Source: a virus (Duplodnaviria; Heunggongvirae; Uroviricota; Caudoviricetes). Taken from it: a DNA stretch of 36,583 bases. Location of the stretch: the IMG/VR virus record IMGVR_UViG_2585427727_000016; one strand, 5' to 3'. Shown piece by piece: positions 24,674-31,578 of the stretch. The position numbers were made by a program, and so were the translations under genes. Every line of letters starts with the position of its first letter. Positions within the stretch are counted from its first letter, which is position 1. Under the pieces are notes generated by a model, which saw only the letters and a list, made by a program, of their open reading frames with translations, had not been told where the DNA came from and made no database searches.

Positions 24674-24690
24674 TTGGGGCTGTCCTTTTT
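24663..24690. terminator. bidirectional intrinsic terminator between Q and the convergent orphan gene
   Basis: CAGCCCC-GTGATT-GGGGCTG hairpin flanked by an A-run upstream and a T-run downstream. Confidence 0.7.
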
Positions 24691-25213
24691 ACCAGAGTTG
24701 AACCATTTTCTGGGTGCCGTCAGGCTTGAGATTATCAATTTCAGAGAGAACGTAATATTGAATGGCTTCACAAACGGTGGTGTATGGTGAATTACCTTCT
24801 TTAAGTGGCACGATATTATTATTAACGCGAACCTGTATTTCATCGTTATACATTGCGATCGAAAGAGGAGTATGCACGAAGGCGACTTCGCCAGGTGTGT
24901 CGTCAACCACTGTCTCAATGCTGAAAATCAGTTTTCGCTCATCATTGCCGCCCCTTGCTTTGGGGGTAGCGGCAGGAATCTGAGATAAAGGCATTCTGCG
25001 AAACCCTTCAGTTGTTTCCAGTCCGCATGAAACGTAATGCTGGCGATTACCGTCGCTATCCGTCCATGTCTGTGATGGCAGCTCCAGAGAGATTTCATAA
25101 GCATCAACAATTCCCTGGGCAATTCGTACAAGTGGGGTCAGGTCTTCATTGCGGCGAAAACTCTCCTTTACCTGATCTCGTTTTTCTCGTAACTGCTTGT
25201 AATTAATGACCAT
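24689..25213 (-). CDS. hypothetical protein, hotspot cargo (174 aa)
   Basis: clean ORF with GGAGG RBS 8 nt before ATG at 25213; own promoter region and terminator; no motif recognised. Confidence 0.6.
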   Translation of the reverse strand: MVINYKQLREKRDQVKESFRRNEDLTPLVRIAQGIVDAYEISLELPSQTWTDSDGNRQHYVSCGLETTEGFRRMPLSQIPAATPKARGGNDERKLIFSIETVVDDTPGEVAFVHTPLSIAMYNDEIQVRVNNNIVPLKEGNSPYTTVCEAIQYYVLSEIDNLKPDGTQKMVQLW

Positions 25214-25312
25214 AAAACAGCCTCCATTGATTTCTTTGCTCGTATTTTGCACTTATGAAGTGTGGTCGGCAAGGTGCCGCATCACTGACGCGCTTCGCTT
25301 GTCTGCTGCTTC

Positions 25313-25341
25313 GCCGGGGCATAAAAAATTTATGCCCCGGC
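25313..25341. promoter_or_regulatory. 29-bp near-perfect palindrome (candidate operator) about 100 bp upstream of the 174-aa gene
   Basis: GCCGGGGCATAAA-AAA-TTTATGCCCCGGC read directly. Confidence 0.4.
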
Positions 25342-25741
25342 TCTCCAGCTCCTGTATCAATCAGATAATTTCACGACGCCTTCCAGTTTATCGCCACCAT
25401 CGACGGTCAGACTCTTACGCAATCCCACTACGTTGACTGTATGTTCTCGCTGCCTCAGTGCGATTTTGACGGCCTTACCTTTCACCCCATCAAATCAAAA
25501 GCCCTCACGCCTTTTTCATGCTCAGCGTGAGAAATATGGCCATTCTGTTGTGTCTCTGCGACATCGTTCAGGGAATGCTATTTACCCCCTGAAACGCGGG
25601 CTGTTCCCCCGTCACCTGCGCGTAGAAAAAACGCGTTTTTTGTGCACGTACGGATCCTTGACGGATCCAGCCGCCACGCGGGCCGGAAGTACAAAAAGTC
25701 GTTCAAAAAAATTGTGCAAACTTGTGCACTATCGTGCAAAC

Positions 25742-25766
25742 AAAAAAAAGCGCCTTATCGGCGCTT
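25742..25766 (-). terminator. intrinsic terminator after the 89-aa gene
   Basis: minus-strand hairpin GCGCC-GATAA-GGCGC followed by a run of 8 U. Confidence 0.7.
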
Positions 25767-25774
25767 CAAAAATA

Positions 25775-26044
25775 TCAATTGTTGCTGTGTATTAATCGCC
25801 AACCACGAACATATGCTTCATAAGCATCTCTGTGCCTTACAGTTCCAGCCTGGCTAAACGGAATGTTAGCTAAAACTAAATCATTCTGAGCCATAGCGCG
25901 TCCTTCAAGCGCATCTTTTATGCCTAGCTCAAAAGCACAGGCAGCGCATTTGTGCCGACCTTCTTGTCCTTGATATTCAGGGAGAGACAGAAATGTTGGG
26001 TTATAACGATGAGGGTTCTTGCAAATACCTGTTTTAGCCCGCAC
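25775..26044 (-). CDS. hypothetical protein, hotspot cargo (89 aa, GTG start)
   Basis: ORF with GAGGT RBS before GTG at 26044 and its own terminator; single CAAC motif; function unknown. Confidence 0.45.
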   Translation of the reverse strand: MRAKTGICKNPHRYNPTFLSLPEYQGQEGRHKCAACAFELGIKDALEGRAMAQNDLVLANIPFSQAGTVRHRDAYEAYVRGWRLIHSNN

Positions 26045-26174
26045 TTTATTTACCTCATAGGAAAAATATGCGTGCCTTTACAGAGGTGCGTGTAAGCAAT
26101 AAAATATACGACGCACATTTTGATTTACTTCGGAAGGCACGCATATCAGGTTAAGTGAGTCCGACCGAGTTCTA

Positions 26175-26207
26175 CGCCCCAATAGTTGCTGCTATTGGGG
26201 CGTTTTG
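26175..26207 (+). terminator. strong plus-strand intrinsic terminator with no annotated plus-strand gene upstream
   Basis: 11-bp GC-rich stem CGCCCCAATAG-TTGCTG-CTATTGGGGCG followed by TTTT. Confidence 0.6.
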
Positions 26208-26408
26208 CATGGACAATGCCGCGCAATTATCTTGTCGCTCACAATGCGAACGATCTTACAAAAAGGCACATTACTGTCAAGATAATTGATCGTTTTAATC
26301 GATAGATAATAGACAATCTATTTGTTTAACAGATCGATTATTGAAGTAAGTGCGCCAAATGGAATGATACTGTTTCTATAAATGTGAGCATTTTTCGCGC
26401 AGATGCTT

Positions 26409-26720
26409 TTACTCAGGAAATAACGCCCGGATATTCCCAGCCATCTGGCTGGTTATCTTAGCCACTGGTGCAGACTGTGCTTCAAACTTTTTTGAGCTGA
26501 TTTGTGTCACAGGTAACATCTCATCATCAGCCCATGCGGCCAGTCGGTAAGCCTCTGCCGGATTCGTCTTCAGAAGTGCCAGCCCGGCCAGAAAAGCCAC
26601 GCGTTGGCCGCTTTTGCGGGCTTCTGGTGTAAGGCTGTCCAGCCAGGCGCATGCTTCTCCTTCGTTCTTGACGGCAGCTGGCTTCAGATAGAAACTTATT
26701 CTTCTGGTTGGTGTCGTCAT
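26409..26720 (-). CDS. parR: ParR/StbB-like centromere-binding adaptor
   Basis: 103 aa; RISFYLKP...LDSLTPEARKSGQRVAFLAGLAL resembles the ParR N-terminal ribbon-helix-helix region as I remember it; AAGGAG RBS; 4 nt after the parM stop. Confidence 0.65.
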   Translation of the reverse strand: MTTPTRRISFYLKPAAVKNEGEACAWLDSLTPEARKSGQRVAFLAGLALLKTNPAEAYRLAAWADDEMLPVTQISSKKFEAQSAPVAKITSQMAGNIRALFPE

Positions 26721-26724
26721 TGGT

Positions 26725-27684
26725 TTACTCCTTGTTCATTGCGTACAGCCCATTAACCAGAGCAAAATGTGGCACCCCGTCCGTGATGAAAGTCGCATTA
26801 ACTCCGCAGGCTTCGCGGATAGCGGGTGCCACAATCTCCGCCCCTCCACCGACAACCATCACCCGCCCGTAACCGGAAAAACCCGCCAGCGCGCGGATCA
26901 CTCGTTGTTTCAGTGTCTCCTCCTTTTCACGAATAACCGCCATCAGGCTGTTGTAATGCGCGTCATTGTGAATGTGCTGGCGCAGCCAGGCTTCATCGTG
27001 ACGGTGCTCAATAATGGTATTGGCGATGTGGTGACTGGTACGCATACCGTTAGTGGCCATCACCGACAGCACGGCATCAGCCATCAGGGAAACGCCTACG
27101 TGTGGATCGCAAAACACCTGGCTGATACCTGCCAGCTGCCCCTGAACCTTTGCCACATCCAGCGTGGTTCCGCCCAAATCCACAATCAGCAGGGATTCAA
27201 ACGGACTCATGTCAGCCAGTGCCTTAAAGCCAGCCGGAATGGATTCAGGCATAACCCGCACGTTACGGATAGTGAATGCTTCGCCGTTCTGGTACTCCAC
27301 CGGGCGCATAACGTTCGCTTTTTTGCGGTTGATGTTGGCTATGTCCGGCTGTGCGTTTGTGTCGAAATACTCGCTCAGTGGCAGGGTGACAACCACATCC
27401 ACCTCCTGTGGCGTGATGCCTGATTTGACCAGCGCGTGATGAATGGCAATGACATTCACATCACTGTACTGGTATTGCGTGTCGGTCGTCTGGACAAAGC
27501 GATCGCTGACCGGATCAAAACCATAGCGCACGCCATCAAGCATGTAGTTCGCGGGCTGCGTGCCACCGAACGGCGCAGACCATTCCGACTTGAAGCTGTT
27601 CGGGCTGATGGCGTTGCGGCGTTCGCCGTTCTCAGTCCATGCCAGCTTGATGTTGGTGGAGCCGTCGTCGATACAAATTTTCAT
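26725..27684 (-). CDS. parM: ParM/StbA-family actin-like ATPase
   Basis: 319 aa; MKICIDDGSTNIKLAW...ISPNSFKSEW and YSDVNVIAIHHALVKSGI closely match the ParM N-terminal phosphate-binding motifs I remember from plasmid R1. Confidence 0.8.
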   Translation of the reverse strand: MKICIDDGSTNIKLAWTENGERRNAISPNSFKSEWSAPFGGTQPANYMLDGVRYGFDPVSDRFVQTTDTQYQYSDVNVIAIHHALVKSGITPQEVDVVVTLPLSEYFDTNAQPDIANINRKKANVMRPVEYQNGEAFTIRNVRVMPESIPAGFKALADMSPFESLLIVDLGGTTLDVAKVQGQLAGISQVFCDPHVGVSLMADAVLSVMATNGMRTSHHIANTIIEHRHDEAWLRQHIHNDAHYNSLMAVIREKEETLKQRVIRALAGFSGYGRVMVVGGGAEIVAPAIREACGVNATFITDGVPHFALVNGLYAMNKE

Positions 27685-27713: not shown

Positions 27714-27827
27714 CGTTTACGGGATTCTGAAATCCCGTTTTTGCCTGTTTTTTGCGCGCTTCATATATCGCTGCGCGTTTTTTGCTCATTTACGGGATTC
27801 GTGAGTCCCGTTTCTGTCTGTTTTTTG
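27714..27827. repeat. two tandem hairpin-containing direct repeats of about 40 bp (candidate centromere or terminator-like elements)
   Basis: 27714..27754 and 27787..27827, each ACGGGA(TT)-loop-(AA)TCCCGT followed by T-rich CTGTTTTTTG; first copy intergenic, second inside the 3' end of gene A. Confidence 0.6.
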
Positions 27828-30583
27828 TTTCCACTGGTCAGGCCACCCTGCAGCAGGTCTGCTTTGCGGCTGGCGCGTTCAGTGGTTTCACTGATTCTCT
27901 GTGCGTGCTCTGCGTCGCGGATGGCGCGCAGCATGTCAGAAAGCACGGTAACGGGTGTTTTCATGGTGTTCTGATCCTGCTGAAGTGCGGATGCCAGGCG
28001 TGCGGCGGCTTCGGGGTCTGATGCCCCCAGCTGTGCCAGATAGCTGGCGACCGGGTTATGGCGGATCTCCGTGCTGCTTACGCCGTGATTACGGCTCAGG
28101 TGCTGCCAGAGCTGCGTGATTCGGCTGTCCGTGCGGGTATCCGGTTTGCGTACAATTTCATATCCCTGCGGTGCAATGATGCTGCCGTCAACGTACAGGC
28201 TGCCGCCCCGTAGCAGGTGCTGCGTCTGCTGTTCACCGATATGCAGGCCGAGAGATTCGGCAGACTCCCGCCATTCTTTAGCGAGTAATTCGTGGTTATC
28301 AGGCAAAGGCCGCTGCTGTTTGCGGCTCTGTGTCCAGCTCTGCATTTCATCACTGCTGTTTTTTGCCTGTTTGTCACGAAGCGAACGCATCAGCGCCCGG
28401 CGTTCGTGCCGTTTCAGTGAGCGCATCCATTCGTTCACTTCAACGCCGTCAGGAAGCTGCGGCCACGGTGCTGGCCGTTCTTTCGACTGTTCTGTCCCGC
28501 TGTTGCCTGTTTCCTGTACACGGGGACAGTTATTGCCACGAGTCCAAGGGGCGGCAGGGCCGCCCTGAAGGTCAAAACCATTTTCGCGGGCGCTGTCTTC
28601 CGCTTCCGGTTTACGTCTTACCAGCTTCCAGTTATCCGGATGTGTGCACACACGGGAAGACTCCCCGATGAGTGGTGACCAGATCCCGTAAATCTGTACG
28701 CTCTGTTCGCCGTAATCGTTCAGCTCATCTGCGAGGTCGTAGGCGGTGCGAATCAGGTAGTCTTTGCGTGGAACAAGTACGCCGCCCTGTTTTTCAATGT
28801 AGGAGGCAAAACACCCGGCATCAGCGGCAGCGAGCACTGCATCCATTGCGTCATCCTTCAGCTGTTGCGGGCCTTCCGGGTTGCGTGCCATCTGGCTGGC
28901 AAGGCGGCGCAGTTCACGCCACACCTGACGGGAGGGGATGCCAAAGAACTGGAACTGGCGGACCCGGTGAAGGCGCGCCCAGCCGATGGCGCGCTCCACG
29001 CTCTCGGCCATTGATTTTCCGGTTTCGTGGTCAACGCGTGGCTTGCCCGTTTTCGGGTCGATACCATCCACGGCGCGGCTGTCCAGGTTCTTTCCGATGT
29101 AGGTGGCGATGTAGCTGGTCGGTGTGCCTTTTGAGCCGTCGACGTACTCTGCCTTAAAGCGTGGGGTAATATCATCACCCAGCTCGTGACGATCTTCCTG
29201 AATGGCAATATCGCGGGTGTGGGACACAATGGTGTCGATTTCTTCCGGATGAGCAAAGACCATCATATGCCAGTGCACGGTGCCGTCATGGTGAGGCTCC
29301 ACCGTGCGGATGCCATACCAGCGCAGGCCGTCGCGGTTCAGTTTCTTGCGGACCGCCGCAAAAAACGAGTTAACCAGGTAATCGCTGGAGTCGCGCATAG
29401 TGGCCCCGTTCCATTTGGGATTCGGATGACCGTTCTCCGTTGTTGCGTGGTATTTTGACGGGCAGGTGACAGTCAGAAACACCGCTCTGTCGCCACGGGC
29501 TTCGGCCAGAAGTTCCAGCCCCTTCATGGTGGCCATCATTTCTGCCTTACGGTGAACCGGGTTACTTACTCCCGCGTAATACACTGTCTCAAGATCAATC
29601 GTGAACCCGTCTTCGTTTTCCAGCATGAAACTTTTCAGGAAATCGCGTGTTTTCTCGCGCTGTGCGCGAAACTCGCTTAACGCATCCTGGCTCAGATAGG
29701 GCGATGTTTTTCTGGAAACCAGACAGGCGGCGCGGAGTTGTTCTTCTCTCCACTCGCAACGTAACAGCCACAGTTTGCGTTTCCACCATTCCGTACAGGT
29801 CAGGCGAAGGATTGCGCCCGGCAGCAGCTCCGTGTCTGGTTCGTTCCTCCGGCCTTTGTCTGTTGTCAGTGCGTCATAATGCGGAGGCATGGCGTGCAGG
29901 TGTAACGCCATGCGGGCCAGCATCTGATACGCCTTCAGCGTTACATCCATGGTCAGCTCGCCATCAGTCGCACCAAAGCCATCGCAGAGTTTTTCGAAGG
30001 TGCTGCTGAACATCGCCGCCGTCATGGTGGCCAGCGTCTGTATCTGGTGTTTGTTGAGCTGCGGCAGGTAAAGCAAATCGTCCAGGCGTTCGCGTCCGGC
30101 AAGGGAGCGATAACCCGGTGTCAGCCAGTGTCCGTCAGTGCGATCCAGACGTTCGAATATTTTGCGCAGGGTTCCGCGTGCATAGCGTTCCGCCTGCCAG
30201 CTCTTTTTGCCTTTCCGGCGATCAGCTTCCTGTTTTTTGCGCAGGAAGGAGAGGTGGCGAATAAGCGGATCGCGCAGATAGGACGGCAGCAGGCGCAGCG
30301 AGGCCATGGCTTCATCCACCGCGCCGCGTGCCTGTTTTCTGGCGTCTCCTGCCAGTGTGATGGTTTTGTCCTGTTTTTCCTGTGCGTCCAGGCTTTTATT
30401 AATCAGGTTGCCCAGCGGCGTGGCGGAGAACGCCGCATCAGCCATTTCCTGGCGGCGCTCGTTCTCTACCCGGTAGGCACCCAGCCAGGAGGAAAGCGCG
30501 GATTCAGGAGCGGGGATCCCCGTTCCTTCACGCCCCACTGCGTGGCGCGGTTGTTGCCAGTCCCTGATGTACTCTGCCGTCAT
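27761..30583 (-). CDS. A: replication initiation protein A (rolling-circle HUH endonuclease)
   Basis: 940 aa; HUH-like motif (VHWHMMVF) and catalytic Tyr motif (YIATYIGK) typical of P2-family gpA. Confidence 0.9.
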   Translation of the reverse strand: MTAEYIRDWQQPRHAVGREGTGIPAPESALSSWLGAYRVENERRQEMADAAFSATPLGNLINKSLDAQEKQDKTITLAGDARKQARGAVDEAMASLRLLPSYLRDPLIRHLSFLRKKQEADRRKGKKSWQAERYARGTLRKIFERLDRTDGHWLTPGYRSLAGRERLDDLLYLPQLNKHQIQTLATMTAAMFSSTFEKLCDGFGATDGELTMDVTLKAYQMLARMALHLHAMPPHYDALTTDKGRRNEPDTELLPGAILRLTCTEWWKRKLWLLRCEWREEQLRAACLVSRKTSPYLSQDALSEFRAQREKTRDFLKSFMLENEDGFTIDLETVYYAGVSNPVHRKAEMMATMKGLELLAEARGDRAVFLTVTCPSKYHATTENGHPNPKWNGATMRDSSDYLVNSFFAAVRKKLNRDGLRWYGIRTVEPHHDGTVHWHMMVFAHPEEIDTIVSHTRDIAIQEDRHELGDDITPRFKAEYVDGSKGTPTSYIATYIGKNLDSRAVDGIDPKTGKPRVDHETGKSMAESVERAIGWARLHRVRQFQFFGIPSRQVWRELRRLASQMARNPEGPQQLKDDAMDAVLAAADAGCFASYIEKQGGVLVPRKDYLIRTAYDLADELNDYGEQSVQIYGIWSPLIGESSRVCTHPDNWKLVRRKPEAEDSARENGFDLQGGPAAPWTRGNNCPRVQETGNSGTEQSKERPAPWPQLPDGVEVNEWMRSLKRHERRALMRSLRDKQAKNSSDEMQSWTQSRKQQRPLPDNHELLAKEWRESAESLGLHIGEQQTQHLLRGGSLYVDGSIIAPQGYEIVRKPDTRTDSRITQLWQHLSRNHGVSSTEIRHNPVASYLAQLGASDPEAAARLASALQQDQNTMKTPVTVLSDMLRAIRDAEHAQRISETTERASRKADLLQGGLTSGNKKQTETGLTNPVNEQKTRSDI

Positions 30584-30589
30584 AGTGAT

Positions 30590-30955
30590 TTACTTCGTCA
30601 TGCCATTCAGGGTGTCGCGGCAGACTGTAGCCAGCCGCTGAATTTCCAGCACGGTGTCTTCTGTGTCGGCATGGCGATGTGTGATGCGGATGCTGTCGGC
30701 AATCACATCGACGATTGCGGAGGATGGGCGCTGGTAAATGCCAATAACGTACGGGGTGCCACCTTCAATGCGGTAAAGCCTGTAATTTCCCTCGTGGCTG
30801 TCAATCATGTAGCGACCATCAATAACAATCTTTCCGTCAGCGAGCTGCGGTACAGGCAGGGATTTCAGGTACATGTCATAACGTTCACGCACGCGAACGG
30901 CAAGATCACGCTCTGTGTTGAGCAGGTATTCAAGAAAGTCGTTGGCGAGAATCAT
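30590..30955 (-). CDS. hypothetical early protein
   Basis: 121-aa ORF immediately upstream of A on the same strand. Confidence 0.55.
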   Translation of the reverse strand: MILANDFLEYLLNTERDLAVRVRERYDMYLKSLPVPQLADGKIVIDGRYMIDSHEGNYRLYRIEGGTPYVIGIYQRPSSAIVDVIADSIRITHRHADTEDTVLEIQRLATVCRDTLNGMTK

Positions 30956-31261: not shown

Positions 31262-31578
31262 GTGGCCCCTTGTGTAGTAAGTTGCGAAAACTCACCATCC
31301 AGAGCTGCGAAACTGTGGGTGGCGAGACGTACGAGGTTCGCAGTACCGGCTACACAAGAACCCGGCCCGACCGAAGTCGGCCCCGTACGCCCCGCCATAA
31401 TTCTGACGCGAAAAAAACGTGGCAATACAGTACGCACAAAAAAACCGCTGGCGCGGTTGTGCGCTTGTGTAGTCAGCAGGCTGCGAAACCCGGCACCCGT
31501 TTTATGAGGTGCAGCGGAAATGTAACCTGACTGATTGCGGCATGGCAAGCGGTTTTTTTGTGTGTGCATAGTGGTTAC
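31262..31578. repeat. non-coding region with iteron-like direct and inverted repeats (CTTGTGTAG / CTGCGAAAC units)
   Basis: CTTGTGTAGTAAGTTGCGAAAAC, GCTGCGAAACTG, GTTCGCAGTACCGGCTACACAAG (inverted), GCTTGTGTAGTCAGCAGGCTGCGAAACC; ends with a hairpin plus T7 on the plus strand. Confidence 0.5.

Follow-up and report, generated by a model that had tools for sequence, protein, structure and literature searches.

An orphan transcription terminator in a P2-like Escherichia coli prophage (Peduoviridae, Xuanwuvirus; IMG/VR record IMGVR_UViG_2585427727_000016) most likely ends a small non-coding RNA (sRNA) that would be antisense to the leader of orf89, a minus-strand gene for a protein of 89 amino acids (aa). 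The whole stretch of 36,583 nucleotides (nt) that was analysed is called the window, and all positions refer to it. The same design of promoter and terminator recurs with the orf89 gene family in many unrelated prophages, hence we suggest the element is probably a real regulator. We consider it fairly likely that a plus-strand RNA of about 95 nt (26111-26206) is made, that it acts in cis as an antisense RNA on the orf89 leader and that it keeps the Orf89 protein low; the production of the RNA, its ~95-nt length, repression rather than activation and the molecular route are what we infer from sequence comparison.

The initial annotation had described a strong plus-strand terminator, preceded by an inverted repeat and a 28-codon open reading frame (ORF), and had proposed an sRNA or a leader peptide which might regulate either the partition module or the adjacent cargo gene. 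Of these proposals the small plus-strand RNA is favoured, as the hairpin behaves like a plus-strand RNA terminator behind a conserved promoter. The adjacent cargo gene is the most likely target, as the predicted RNA is antisense to the 5' untranslated region (5' UTR) of orf89 and the cassette travels with this gene. What our analysis would add is the cis-antisense position of the RNA relative to the 5' UTR of a real gene of 89 aa, and the apparent mobility of the whole cassette across several phage families. The features on which this reading depends are:

25775-26044, minus strand: orf89, 89 aa, GTG start, phrog_3941 (function unknown)
26077-26082, plus strand: predicted -35 hexamer TTTACA, from the promoter scan and conserved in homologous leaders
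26100-26105, plus strand: predicted -10 hexamer TAAAAT, from the promoter scan, after a 17-nt spacer
About 26111-26206, plus strand: predicted cis-antisense sRNA of about 95-96 nt, the 5' end (about 26111-26113) placed from the -10 hexamer and the 3' end from the T-run
26174-26206, plus strand: terminator with a 12-bp stem, a 6-nt loop and TTTT

The repeat finder gave two perfect 12-nt arms, 26174-26185 (ACGCCCCAATAG) and 26192-26203 (CTATTGGGGCGT), separated by the 6-nt loop; eight of the 12 pairs are G-C and the hairpin folds with about -22.7 kcal/mol. The run of four T's (26203-26206), the first of which is able to pair with A26174, is followed by a G at 26207. The hairpin and its T-run on the plus strand are thus real, with one base pair more and coordinates one base lower than previously given (11-bp, 26175..26207), and the GenBank and RefSeq records of the same prophage confirm that no plus-strand gene is annotated upstream of it. 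A GC-rich stem-loop followed by a U-tract, as in an intrinsic terminator, is found on the plus strand only; the minus-strand side of the stem continues with GTAGAAC, and the homologues are T-rich on the same strand as the window. The 153-nt plus-strand segment folds with -59.9 kcal/mol (z = -6.2, none of 200 shuffles as stable) and the minus strand is nearly equally stable (z = -5.8). As both strands fold comparably, folding alone cannot tell which of them matters.

Upstream of the hairpin, TTTACA-17-TAAAAT agrees with the sigma-70 consensus at 10 of 12 positions, and is predicted from sequence to act as a promoter. For comparison we needed more distant relatives; searches of phage, plasmid and E. 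coli collections with the DNA returned only copies of at least 97% identity, too alike for covariation, and a word-indexed protein search gave near-identical proteins only. An exhaustive protein search was required, and it yielded 172 homologous cluster representatives with E<1e-3, 23 of them with E<1e-10. Because of these homologues and the match to phrog_3941 (E = 6e-49) we regard orf89 as a real gene. From the protein-family alignment 80 viral loci were fetched and 39 distinct upstream leaders extracted, to which two annotated phages and the window were added.

The promoter pattern was scored on 38 distinct leaders of orf89 homologues with 47-63% protein identity. Sequence similarity between the leader groups is mostly lost while the layout is shared. 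TTTAC[AT]-N16-18-[TC]AnnnT was found on the antisense strand in 35 of the 38 leaders, at a distance of 31-44 nt from the start codon; the other three leaders come from homologues that lie within operons. Among 29 aligned leaders TTTAC is invariant and the final A of the -35 hexamer is kept in 90%, and positions T1, A2 and T6 of the -10 hexamer are conserved in 100%, with neighbouring columns at 30-60%. The -10 hexamer takes the forms TACGAT, TAGACT, TAATCT, TAGAAT, TACAAT and others among the homologues. Invariant hexamer positions amid variable neighbours are the pattern expected of a working promoter.

Every promoter-bearing leader has a GC-rich hairpin 37-80 nt after the -10 hexamer, made from about 11 unrelated stem sequences of 9-13 bp each. 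The tails after the hairpin read TTTTG in the window and TTTTCC or TTCCCTTAT elsewhere, with six to seven T's in the most distant groups (L195, L199, L203). RNAalifold recovers the hairpin, and the covariation check proposed with the initial annotation came out in its favour, with the terminator conserved and compensatory changes in all ten pairs. In the model alignment of 29 sequences 82% of the cells are paired against 60% in shuffles (0/500 as high). The covariation score of 0.623 compares with 0.261 in shuffles (0/500 as high) and with 0.19 or less for slid pairing partners. A covariance model derived from 24 sequences matches the window at 26077-26215 on the plus strand (45.3 bits, E = 7.5e-9) and 36 loci, always antisense to orf89; further sense-strand matches occur in nine loci, all below 22 bits.

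The imperfect positions of the stem bear on the strand. The model alignment holds 39 G.U cells and no A.C cells when read on the antisense strand, a count biased towards the modelled strand. As the hairpins of different groups come out slightly shifted against each other in the MAFFT and in the model-based alignments, the pairs were also counted register-free, which gave about 10 internal G.U against 2-3 A.C on the antisense strand, a small count with p ~0.02-0.05 by our own sign-test estimate. Of the 8 nt following the hairpin, 3.8 on average are T on the antisense strand, against 0.8 on the sense strand. Taken together, the G.U bias, the T-rich tail and the covariation indicate a helix selected as RNA on the plus strand of the window, where it would end a transcript. 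In its predicted fold the sRNA has a largely open 5' part followed by the terminator hairpin; no conserved helix was found in its body, so that the evolutionary support for structure covers the terminator helix only. Scanning the whole window with Rfam at gathering thresholds gave only C4 and isrK, 5 kb away, and E-value scans, run on the region and on two homologous loci, returned only terminator-like matches below threshold and no family at threshold.

The opposite strand carries the predicted orf89 transcript, with the following features:

26253-26280, minus strand: predicted sense promoter of orf89, TTGACA-16 nt-TAAGAT, from the promoter scan, with a predicted start at about 26246
26045-26246, minus strand: predicted orf89 5' UTR of about 200 nt, holding the complement of the terminator hairpin, the helix H3 and the Shine-Dalgarno sequence GAGG (26056-26053)
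26066-26146, minus strand: long-range inverted repeat, read as helix H3 of the orf89 mRNA leader and enclosing the antisense promoter
25747-25767, minus strand: terminator of the orf89 transcript, from the terminator scan, eight pairs followed by TTTTTGTTTG; the orf89 mRNA would be about 500 nt long (~26246 to ~25747)
26282-26341, no strand assigned: AT-rich imperfect palindrome upstream of the sense -35 hexamer (repeat I1, in which I5 is nested); it may be an operator or a UP-like element

All 11 representative leaders that were examined have a match to TTGnnn-N16-18-TAnnnT upstream, as a counterpart of this sense promoter, the choice being less certain for two of them. The inverted repeat seen earlier as 11 nt exists and extends to 13 perfect nt, 26066-26078 (ATATGCGTGCCTT) and 26134-26146 (AAGGCACGCATAT), with 55 nt between the arms. 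It does not seem to belong to the sRNA, of which only the right arm would be a part; both arms lie in the minus-strand leader, and in our structural model the repeat is a helix of the sense leader. The exact repeat occurs only in cassettes of the window type ("type A"), and single-sequence prediction for several other groups gives a long helix of different sequence across the antisense -10 and -35 hexamers. The predicted leader folds share a layout of a 5' hairpin, the terminator complement, an A-rich linker, the long helix enclosing the antisense promoter and a helix pairing the Shine-Dalgarno sequence; this last pairing is predicted for the window and for several other leaders. The antisense -10 hexamer of the window falls within a loop of the predicted sense leader.

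Two observations concern the promoters themselves. A perfect 11-nt inverted repeat, CAATTATCTTG and CAAGATAATTG (26224-26234 and 26278-26288), flanks the sense promoter with one arm overlapping the -35 hexamer and the other at about +12 to +22; it was seen in the window-type cassette only and may be an operator pair. In most leader groups GATC motifs recur beside the sense and antisense promoters or within them (GAGATCTC, GGTGATCAC, TAGGATC; leaders L157-L205), perhaps a hint of control sensitive to Dam methylation, which is pure conjecture.

We propose that the sRNA would start at its own sigma-70-type promoter and end at the hairpin and T-run, and so would lie entirely within the ~200-nt 5' UTR of the convergent orf89. 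Being encoded inside this 5' UTR, it would be perfectly complementary to about +40 to +135 of the orf89 mRNA, and would pair with the leader zone that holds the terminator-hairpin complement and the 5' arm of the long helix. Pairing would lower orf89 expression by duplex-directed cleavage or decay of the mRNA, by remodelling of the leader, or by both; the candidate routes are RNase III-type cleavage, remodelling of the long helix and a blocked ribosome standby site. This effect would add to the Shine-Dalgarno pairing already present in the predicted leader folds. As the terminator lies about 40 nt short of the sense start site, it would be the RNA product that matters and not promoter occlusion.

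The genomic distribution concerns the alternative target, the partition module. The gene order in this part of the window is:

Terminase large subunit and portal genes (plus strand, end 24673); 174-aa ORF (minus strand); orf89, 25775-26044 (minus strand); the element; parR, 26409-26720 (minus strand); parM; gene A replication gene

We scanned 87 loci, 80 of them fetched via ParM proteins of 97-100% identity. The element was matched in only 14 of them, and at least 14 different sequences follow parR; the suggested link to partition is therefore dropped, and the element belongs to the orf89 cassette and not to parMR. For the same lack of co-occurrence with parM and parR (14/87) the centromere parC of a ParMRC system was rejected as a candidate.

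Of 5426 complete E. coli genomes, 166 carry the stretch with the element at 98-100% identity, on the chromosome every time; the E. coli O111 strains RM9322 and E2863 (L003/L004) are identical to the window over the 721 nt searched (25700-26420). E. coli has three versions of the cassette, which are present in 166, 7 and 21 of the complete genomes. A divergent "type B" cassette, in two of the scanned loci (L020/L023), retains the AT-rich nested palindrome and the hairpin, the latter with the same stem and a different loop, together with a TTGACA-16-TAGGAT promoter and a conserved Shine-Dalgarno region; its downstream hairpins are different and its orf89 homologue has ~60% identity. Two further phages carry the cassette, the P22-like Salmonella phage BIS08P22 downstream of cI and the Providencia phage PSTCR7lys between Q and its lysis genes; both are classical cargo positions. 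Hence the promoter pair, the leader and the gene appear to be a self-contained cassette moving between the cargo slots of different temperate phages. The record of BIS08P22 has a "hypothetical protein" across the promoter and leader of the cassette (L204 3165-3401).

Several points weigh against the antisense RNA. The loci are related, so that the 35 of 38 leaders amount to about seven independent sequence groups, and the limits of the two G.U counts were given above. Our literature searches by topic, accession number and literal sequence found no transcript or 5' or 3' end for any member, and no mention of the protein, the sequences or such an RNA. The word "strong" in the earlier description holds for the stable GC stem with T's on the plus strand and does not extend to the U-tract; the window has four T's only, the tails are interrupted in many homologues (TTCCCTTAT), and a generic terminator scan missed the site while listing six others in 25300-26800. 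The hairpin forms equally in the sense leader, where it could have a role. The sRNA does not overlap the ribosome-binding site, and the sequence does not fix the route of repression or even its sign; in the window, pairing of the sRNA would free sequence that masks the Shine-Dalgarno. This masking sequence lies inside the zone complementary to the sRNA in the window and outside it in other groups, and no one common mechanism can be derived from the leader folds.

In an explanation without any sRNA, the hairpin and the inverted repeat would be structural elements of the minus-strand orf89 5' UTR only and serve, for example, mRNA stability or translational control. Both elements fall within the 5' UTR as predicted, the predicted leaders of other groups are built much alike, from a 5' hairpin, a GC hairpin, a long helix and a paired Shine-Dalgarno sequence, and the minus-strand fold is about as unusual as that of the plus strand. 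We nevertheless find this explanation unlikely, since it leaves the invariant TTTACA-N17-TAnnnT on the opposite strand unexplained, and likewise the T-rich tail on that strand only, the tail on the sense strand being A-rich. The imperfect stem positions, which are G.U in the antisense RNA, would be A.C mismatches in a sense RNA. A structural role of the leader is also compatible with an sRNA alongside.

If the plus-strand RNA is made, it could instead act in trans as an Hfq-type sRNA on targets elsewhere in the phage or the host, its overlap with orf89 being incidental. An open 5' part, a U-rich stretch ahead of the terminator and a terminal hairpin are predicted and would suit such an RNA, and positions 26121-26132 (plus strand) are a perfect 12-nt complement of the start of gene A, positions -14 to -3 (30586-30597, minus-strand mRNA). 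We judge the gene A match to be chance and reject this target, as the target sequence is identical in cassette-free phages and, by our estimate, chance alone would give about 0.4 such 12-mers in the window. The body of the RNA is moreover unrelated between leader groups while the architecture of promoter and terminator is kept, as fits a cis target which co-varies automatically, and trans action appears improbable to us.

The terminator could also be an insulator against plus-strand read-through, from the late or portal side or from a cos region, into parR, parM and gene A. Its orientation fits, with no plus-strand gene upstream and the convergent parR 200 nt downstream. Upstream there are however already two terminators able to act on the plus strand, one at 25618-25636 and one formed by the 25747-25767 hairpin; the hairpin at 26174-26206 accompanies orf89 into phages showing no parMR nearby, and a promoter always lies 60-100 nt upstream of it; an insulator is thus very improbable.

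We give hardly any credence to the palindromes as sites acting at the DNA level, be it as a centromere for ParR (parC), as the operator of a repressor or in recombination; they do adjoin parR, and perfect palindromes are typical of protein-binding sites, but the element is absent from most loci with near-identical ParM, and the stem sequence differs wholly between groups with its pairing kept, as is characteristic of an RNA helix and not of a sequence-specific site.

A leader peptide or micro-protein is just as implausible. The ORF in question is:

26068-26154, plus strand: 28-codon micro-ORF with an ATG start, rejected as a functional part

It exists one base away from the position first given (26069..26155), with AGGA at 26059-26062, 5 nt before the ATG, and a mirror ORF of 29 aa runs on the minus strand (26144-26055), stops within the orf89 Shine-Dalgarno sequence and would allow translational coupling. 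A function as peptide was nevertheless rejected for either strand, as the plus-strand ATG is upstream of the conserved promoter and outside the predicted transcript, the minus-strand ATG has no Shine-Dalgarno sequence, both ORFs begin with MRAF and are apparently by-products of the palindrome (CATATG in the repeat), and neither a related peptide nor an ORF conserved in position and sequence was found on either strand across the leader groups, several of which lack any ORF of at least 12 codons.

The predicted target of the antisense RNA, Orf89, is labelled a hypothetical protein by PGAP and GenBank. Many of its homologues are stand-alone proteins of 82-100 aa with 40-56% identity. The domain has an internal repeat, SQ.G..RHKC..CAY..G and SQAG..RHK...AY..GY, and the AlphaFold2 model (mean predicted local distance difference test score, pLDDT, 91.5) is a fold of short helices, the longest having 14 residues. 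No hydrophobic segment was seen on inspection of the sequence. We found no relative of fold or sequence in the PDB, no match in PADLOC, Pfam or NCBIfam, and no sequence relation to any known toxin. The domain is also fused to HNH_2, NOV_C, DndB/DpdB-like and WYL domains (proteins P0020, P0047, P0052, P0065, P0076), and in distant relatives (L197, L200, L202) it directly follows genes for PD-(D/E)XK-like restriction endonucleases or XRE-family regulators. These partners point to a defence of the restriction/modification type.

Type I toxin-antitoxin systems with a cis-antisense RNA over the 5' UTR of the toxin include ldrD/rdlD and hok/sok, and, with soluble nuclease-type toxins, symE/symR and ralR/ralA of the rac prophage. 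The orf89 cassette resembles these in its predicted antisense RNA, which is small, looks constitutive, has a promoter and a terminator of its own and runs convergently to the protein gene, in its complementarity to a long structured leader with the Shine-Dalgarno sequence paired in our predicted folds, and in being a compact mobile two-gene unit of prophages. It differs in that the predicted RNA does not overlap the ribosome-binding site, and in the protein; type I toxins are usually hydrophobic membrane peptides of less than 60 aa, and Orf89 is by its model a soluble two-repeat domain of 89 aa which is not known to be toxic. SymE and RalR are exceptions to the rule of small hydrophobic toxins.

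Among other countertranscripts, the sar RNA of P22 (with ant) and those of plasmids are likewise phage or plasmid cis-antisense RNAs of ~70-100 nt ending in a strong hairpin; sar covers the ribosome-binding site of ant, whereas the predicted RNA lies upstream of that of orf89. The best plus-strand matches in Rfam were sar (RF00262) and ctRNA_pGA1 (RF00236), which scored 22.0 and 22.1 bits where 43 and 45 are required, and membership was rejected since only the terminator hairpin matches, far below threshold. Convergent promoter pairs are also known from CopA/CopT-tap of R1 and RNA-OUT/RNA-IN of IS10, where the leader of the gene under control is bound by the antisense RNA; CopA binds upstream of the ribosome-binding site. 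GATC near the promoters, as in many orf89 cassettes, is shared with pIN of IS10. Unlike CopA/CopT-tap, the cassette shows no conserved tap-like leader peptide and does not sit in a replicon, and unlike in IS10 the element is not in a transposase.

The convergent promoters, the long structured leader, the paired Shine-Dalgarno sequence and the antisense RNA, as predicted, suggest that orf89 expression must stay low or conditional. Further, we speculate that orf89 and the antisense RNA might form a type I toxin-antitoxin or abortive-infection module that has so far escaped notice among prophage cargo, with a stand-alone DNA-binding (or DNA-modification-binding) domain as effector and the sRNA as the antidote that silences it in the lysogen; this is a tentative proposal which we think is rather unlikely to hold as a whole.

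The element sits between GpA/parMR and the portal gene, that is, in the GpA-GpQ interval known as a cargo and defence hotspot of P2-like phages (PMC13586616; PMC9122126). The moron cassettes and other cargo of this hotspot occupy the same genomic slot and are swapped in the same way on a near-identical phage backbone (PMC9122126, PMC13586616). In contrast to the defence cargo of P2, the cassette here consists of one small uncharacterised protein and a predicted RNA, with no recognised defence system (no PADLOC match).

Some further observations were made in the surroundings. The DNA right after parR (stop at ~26409) is a point of cargo swapping, with at least 14 unrelated cassettes behind 97-100% identical parM/parR (loci L005-L087), most of which begin behind a short hairpin, CATCAGGGCG....CGCCCTGATG. 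The 174-aa ORF (24689-25213, minus strand; phrog_5091, function unknown) is convergent with the portal gene, and as the interval from portal to orf89 is ~600 nt shorter in phage 520873, with no gene annotated there, it may be a second small cargo slot. Between two terminators, at 25610-25740, a GC-rich palindrome (GGATCCTTGACGGATCC) and four TGTGCA repeats could be a cos or terminase-binding region; the P2/186 cos consensus is absent from the window, even with three mismatches allowed. The C4 antisense RNA (83 bits) and isrK (65 bits) of Rfam lie side by side at 31315-31402 and 31438-31512 (both minus strand), upstream of the gene A-like replication gene; this is the immunity RNA pair of the P1/P7 type, here within a P2-like prophage. 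Gene A (replication endonuclease) is annotated as an incomplete pseudogene in the RefSeq records of the two O111 strains, and is an intact 940-aa ORF in the window (27761-30583, GPA domain at residues 179-503). The record of phage 503458 (NC_049341, L002) has many single-base indels that split genes, a matter of record quality.

The class of cis-antisense sRNAs is already known; what would be new is a conserved instance with a structured target leader on an uncharacterised, defence-associated prophage cargo gene. The "hypothetical protein" called over the leader in BIS08P22 would be an annotation error, and the cassette gives a lead on the uncharacterised phrog_3941 protein; the finding would gain in interest if orf89 proves to be a toxin or defence effector. 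If real, the sRNA would be an unannotated RNA gene in a prophage of 166 of the 5426 complete E. coli genomes; at least 28 further E. coli genomes have related cassettes, as do phages of Salmonella and Providencia. The system would then be a compact, testable model of antisense control in the P2 defence hotspot, and a candidate for a new RNA-antitoxin system and a new Rfam family.

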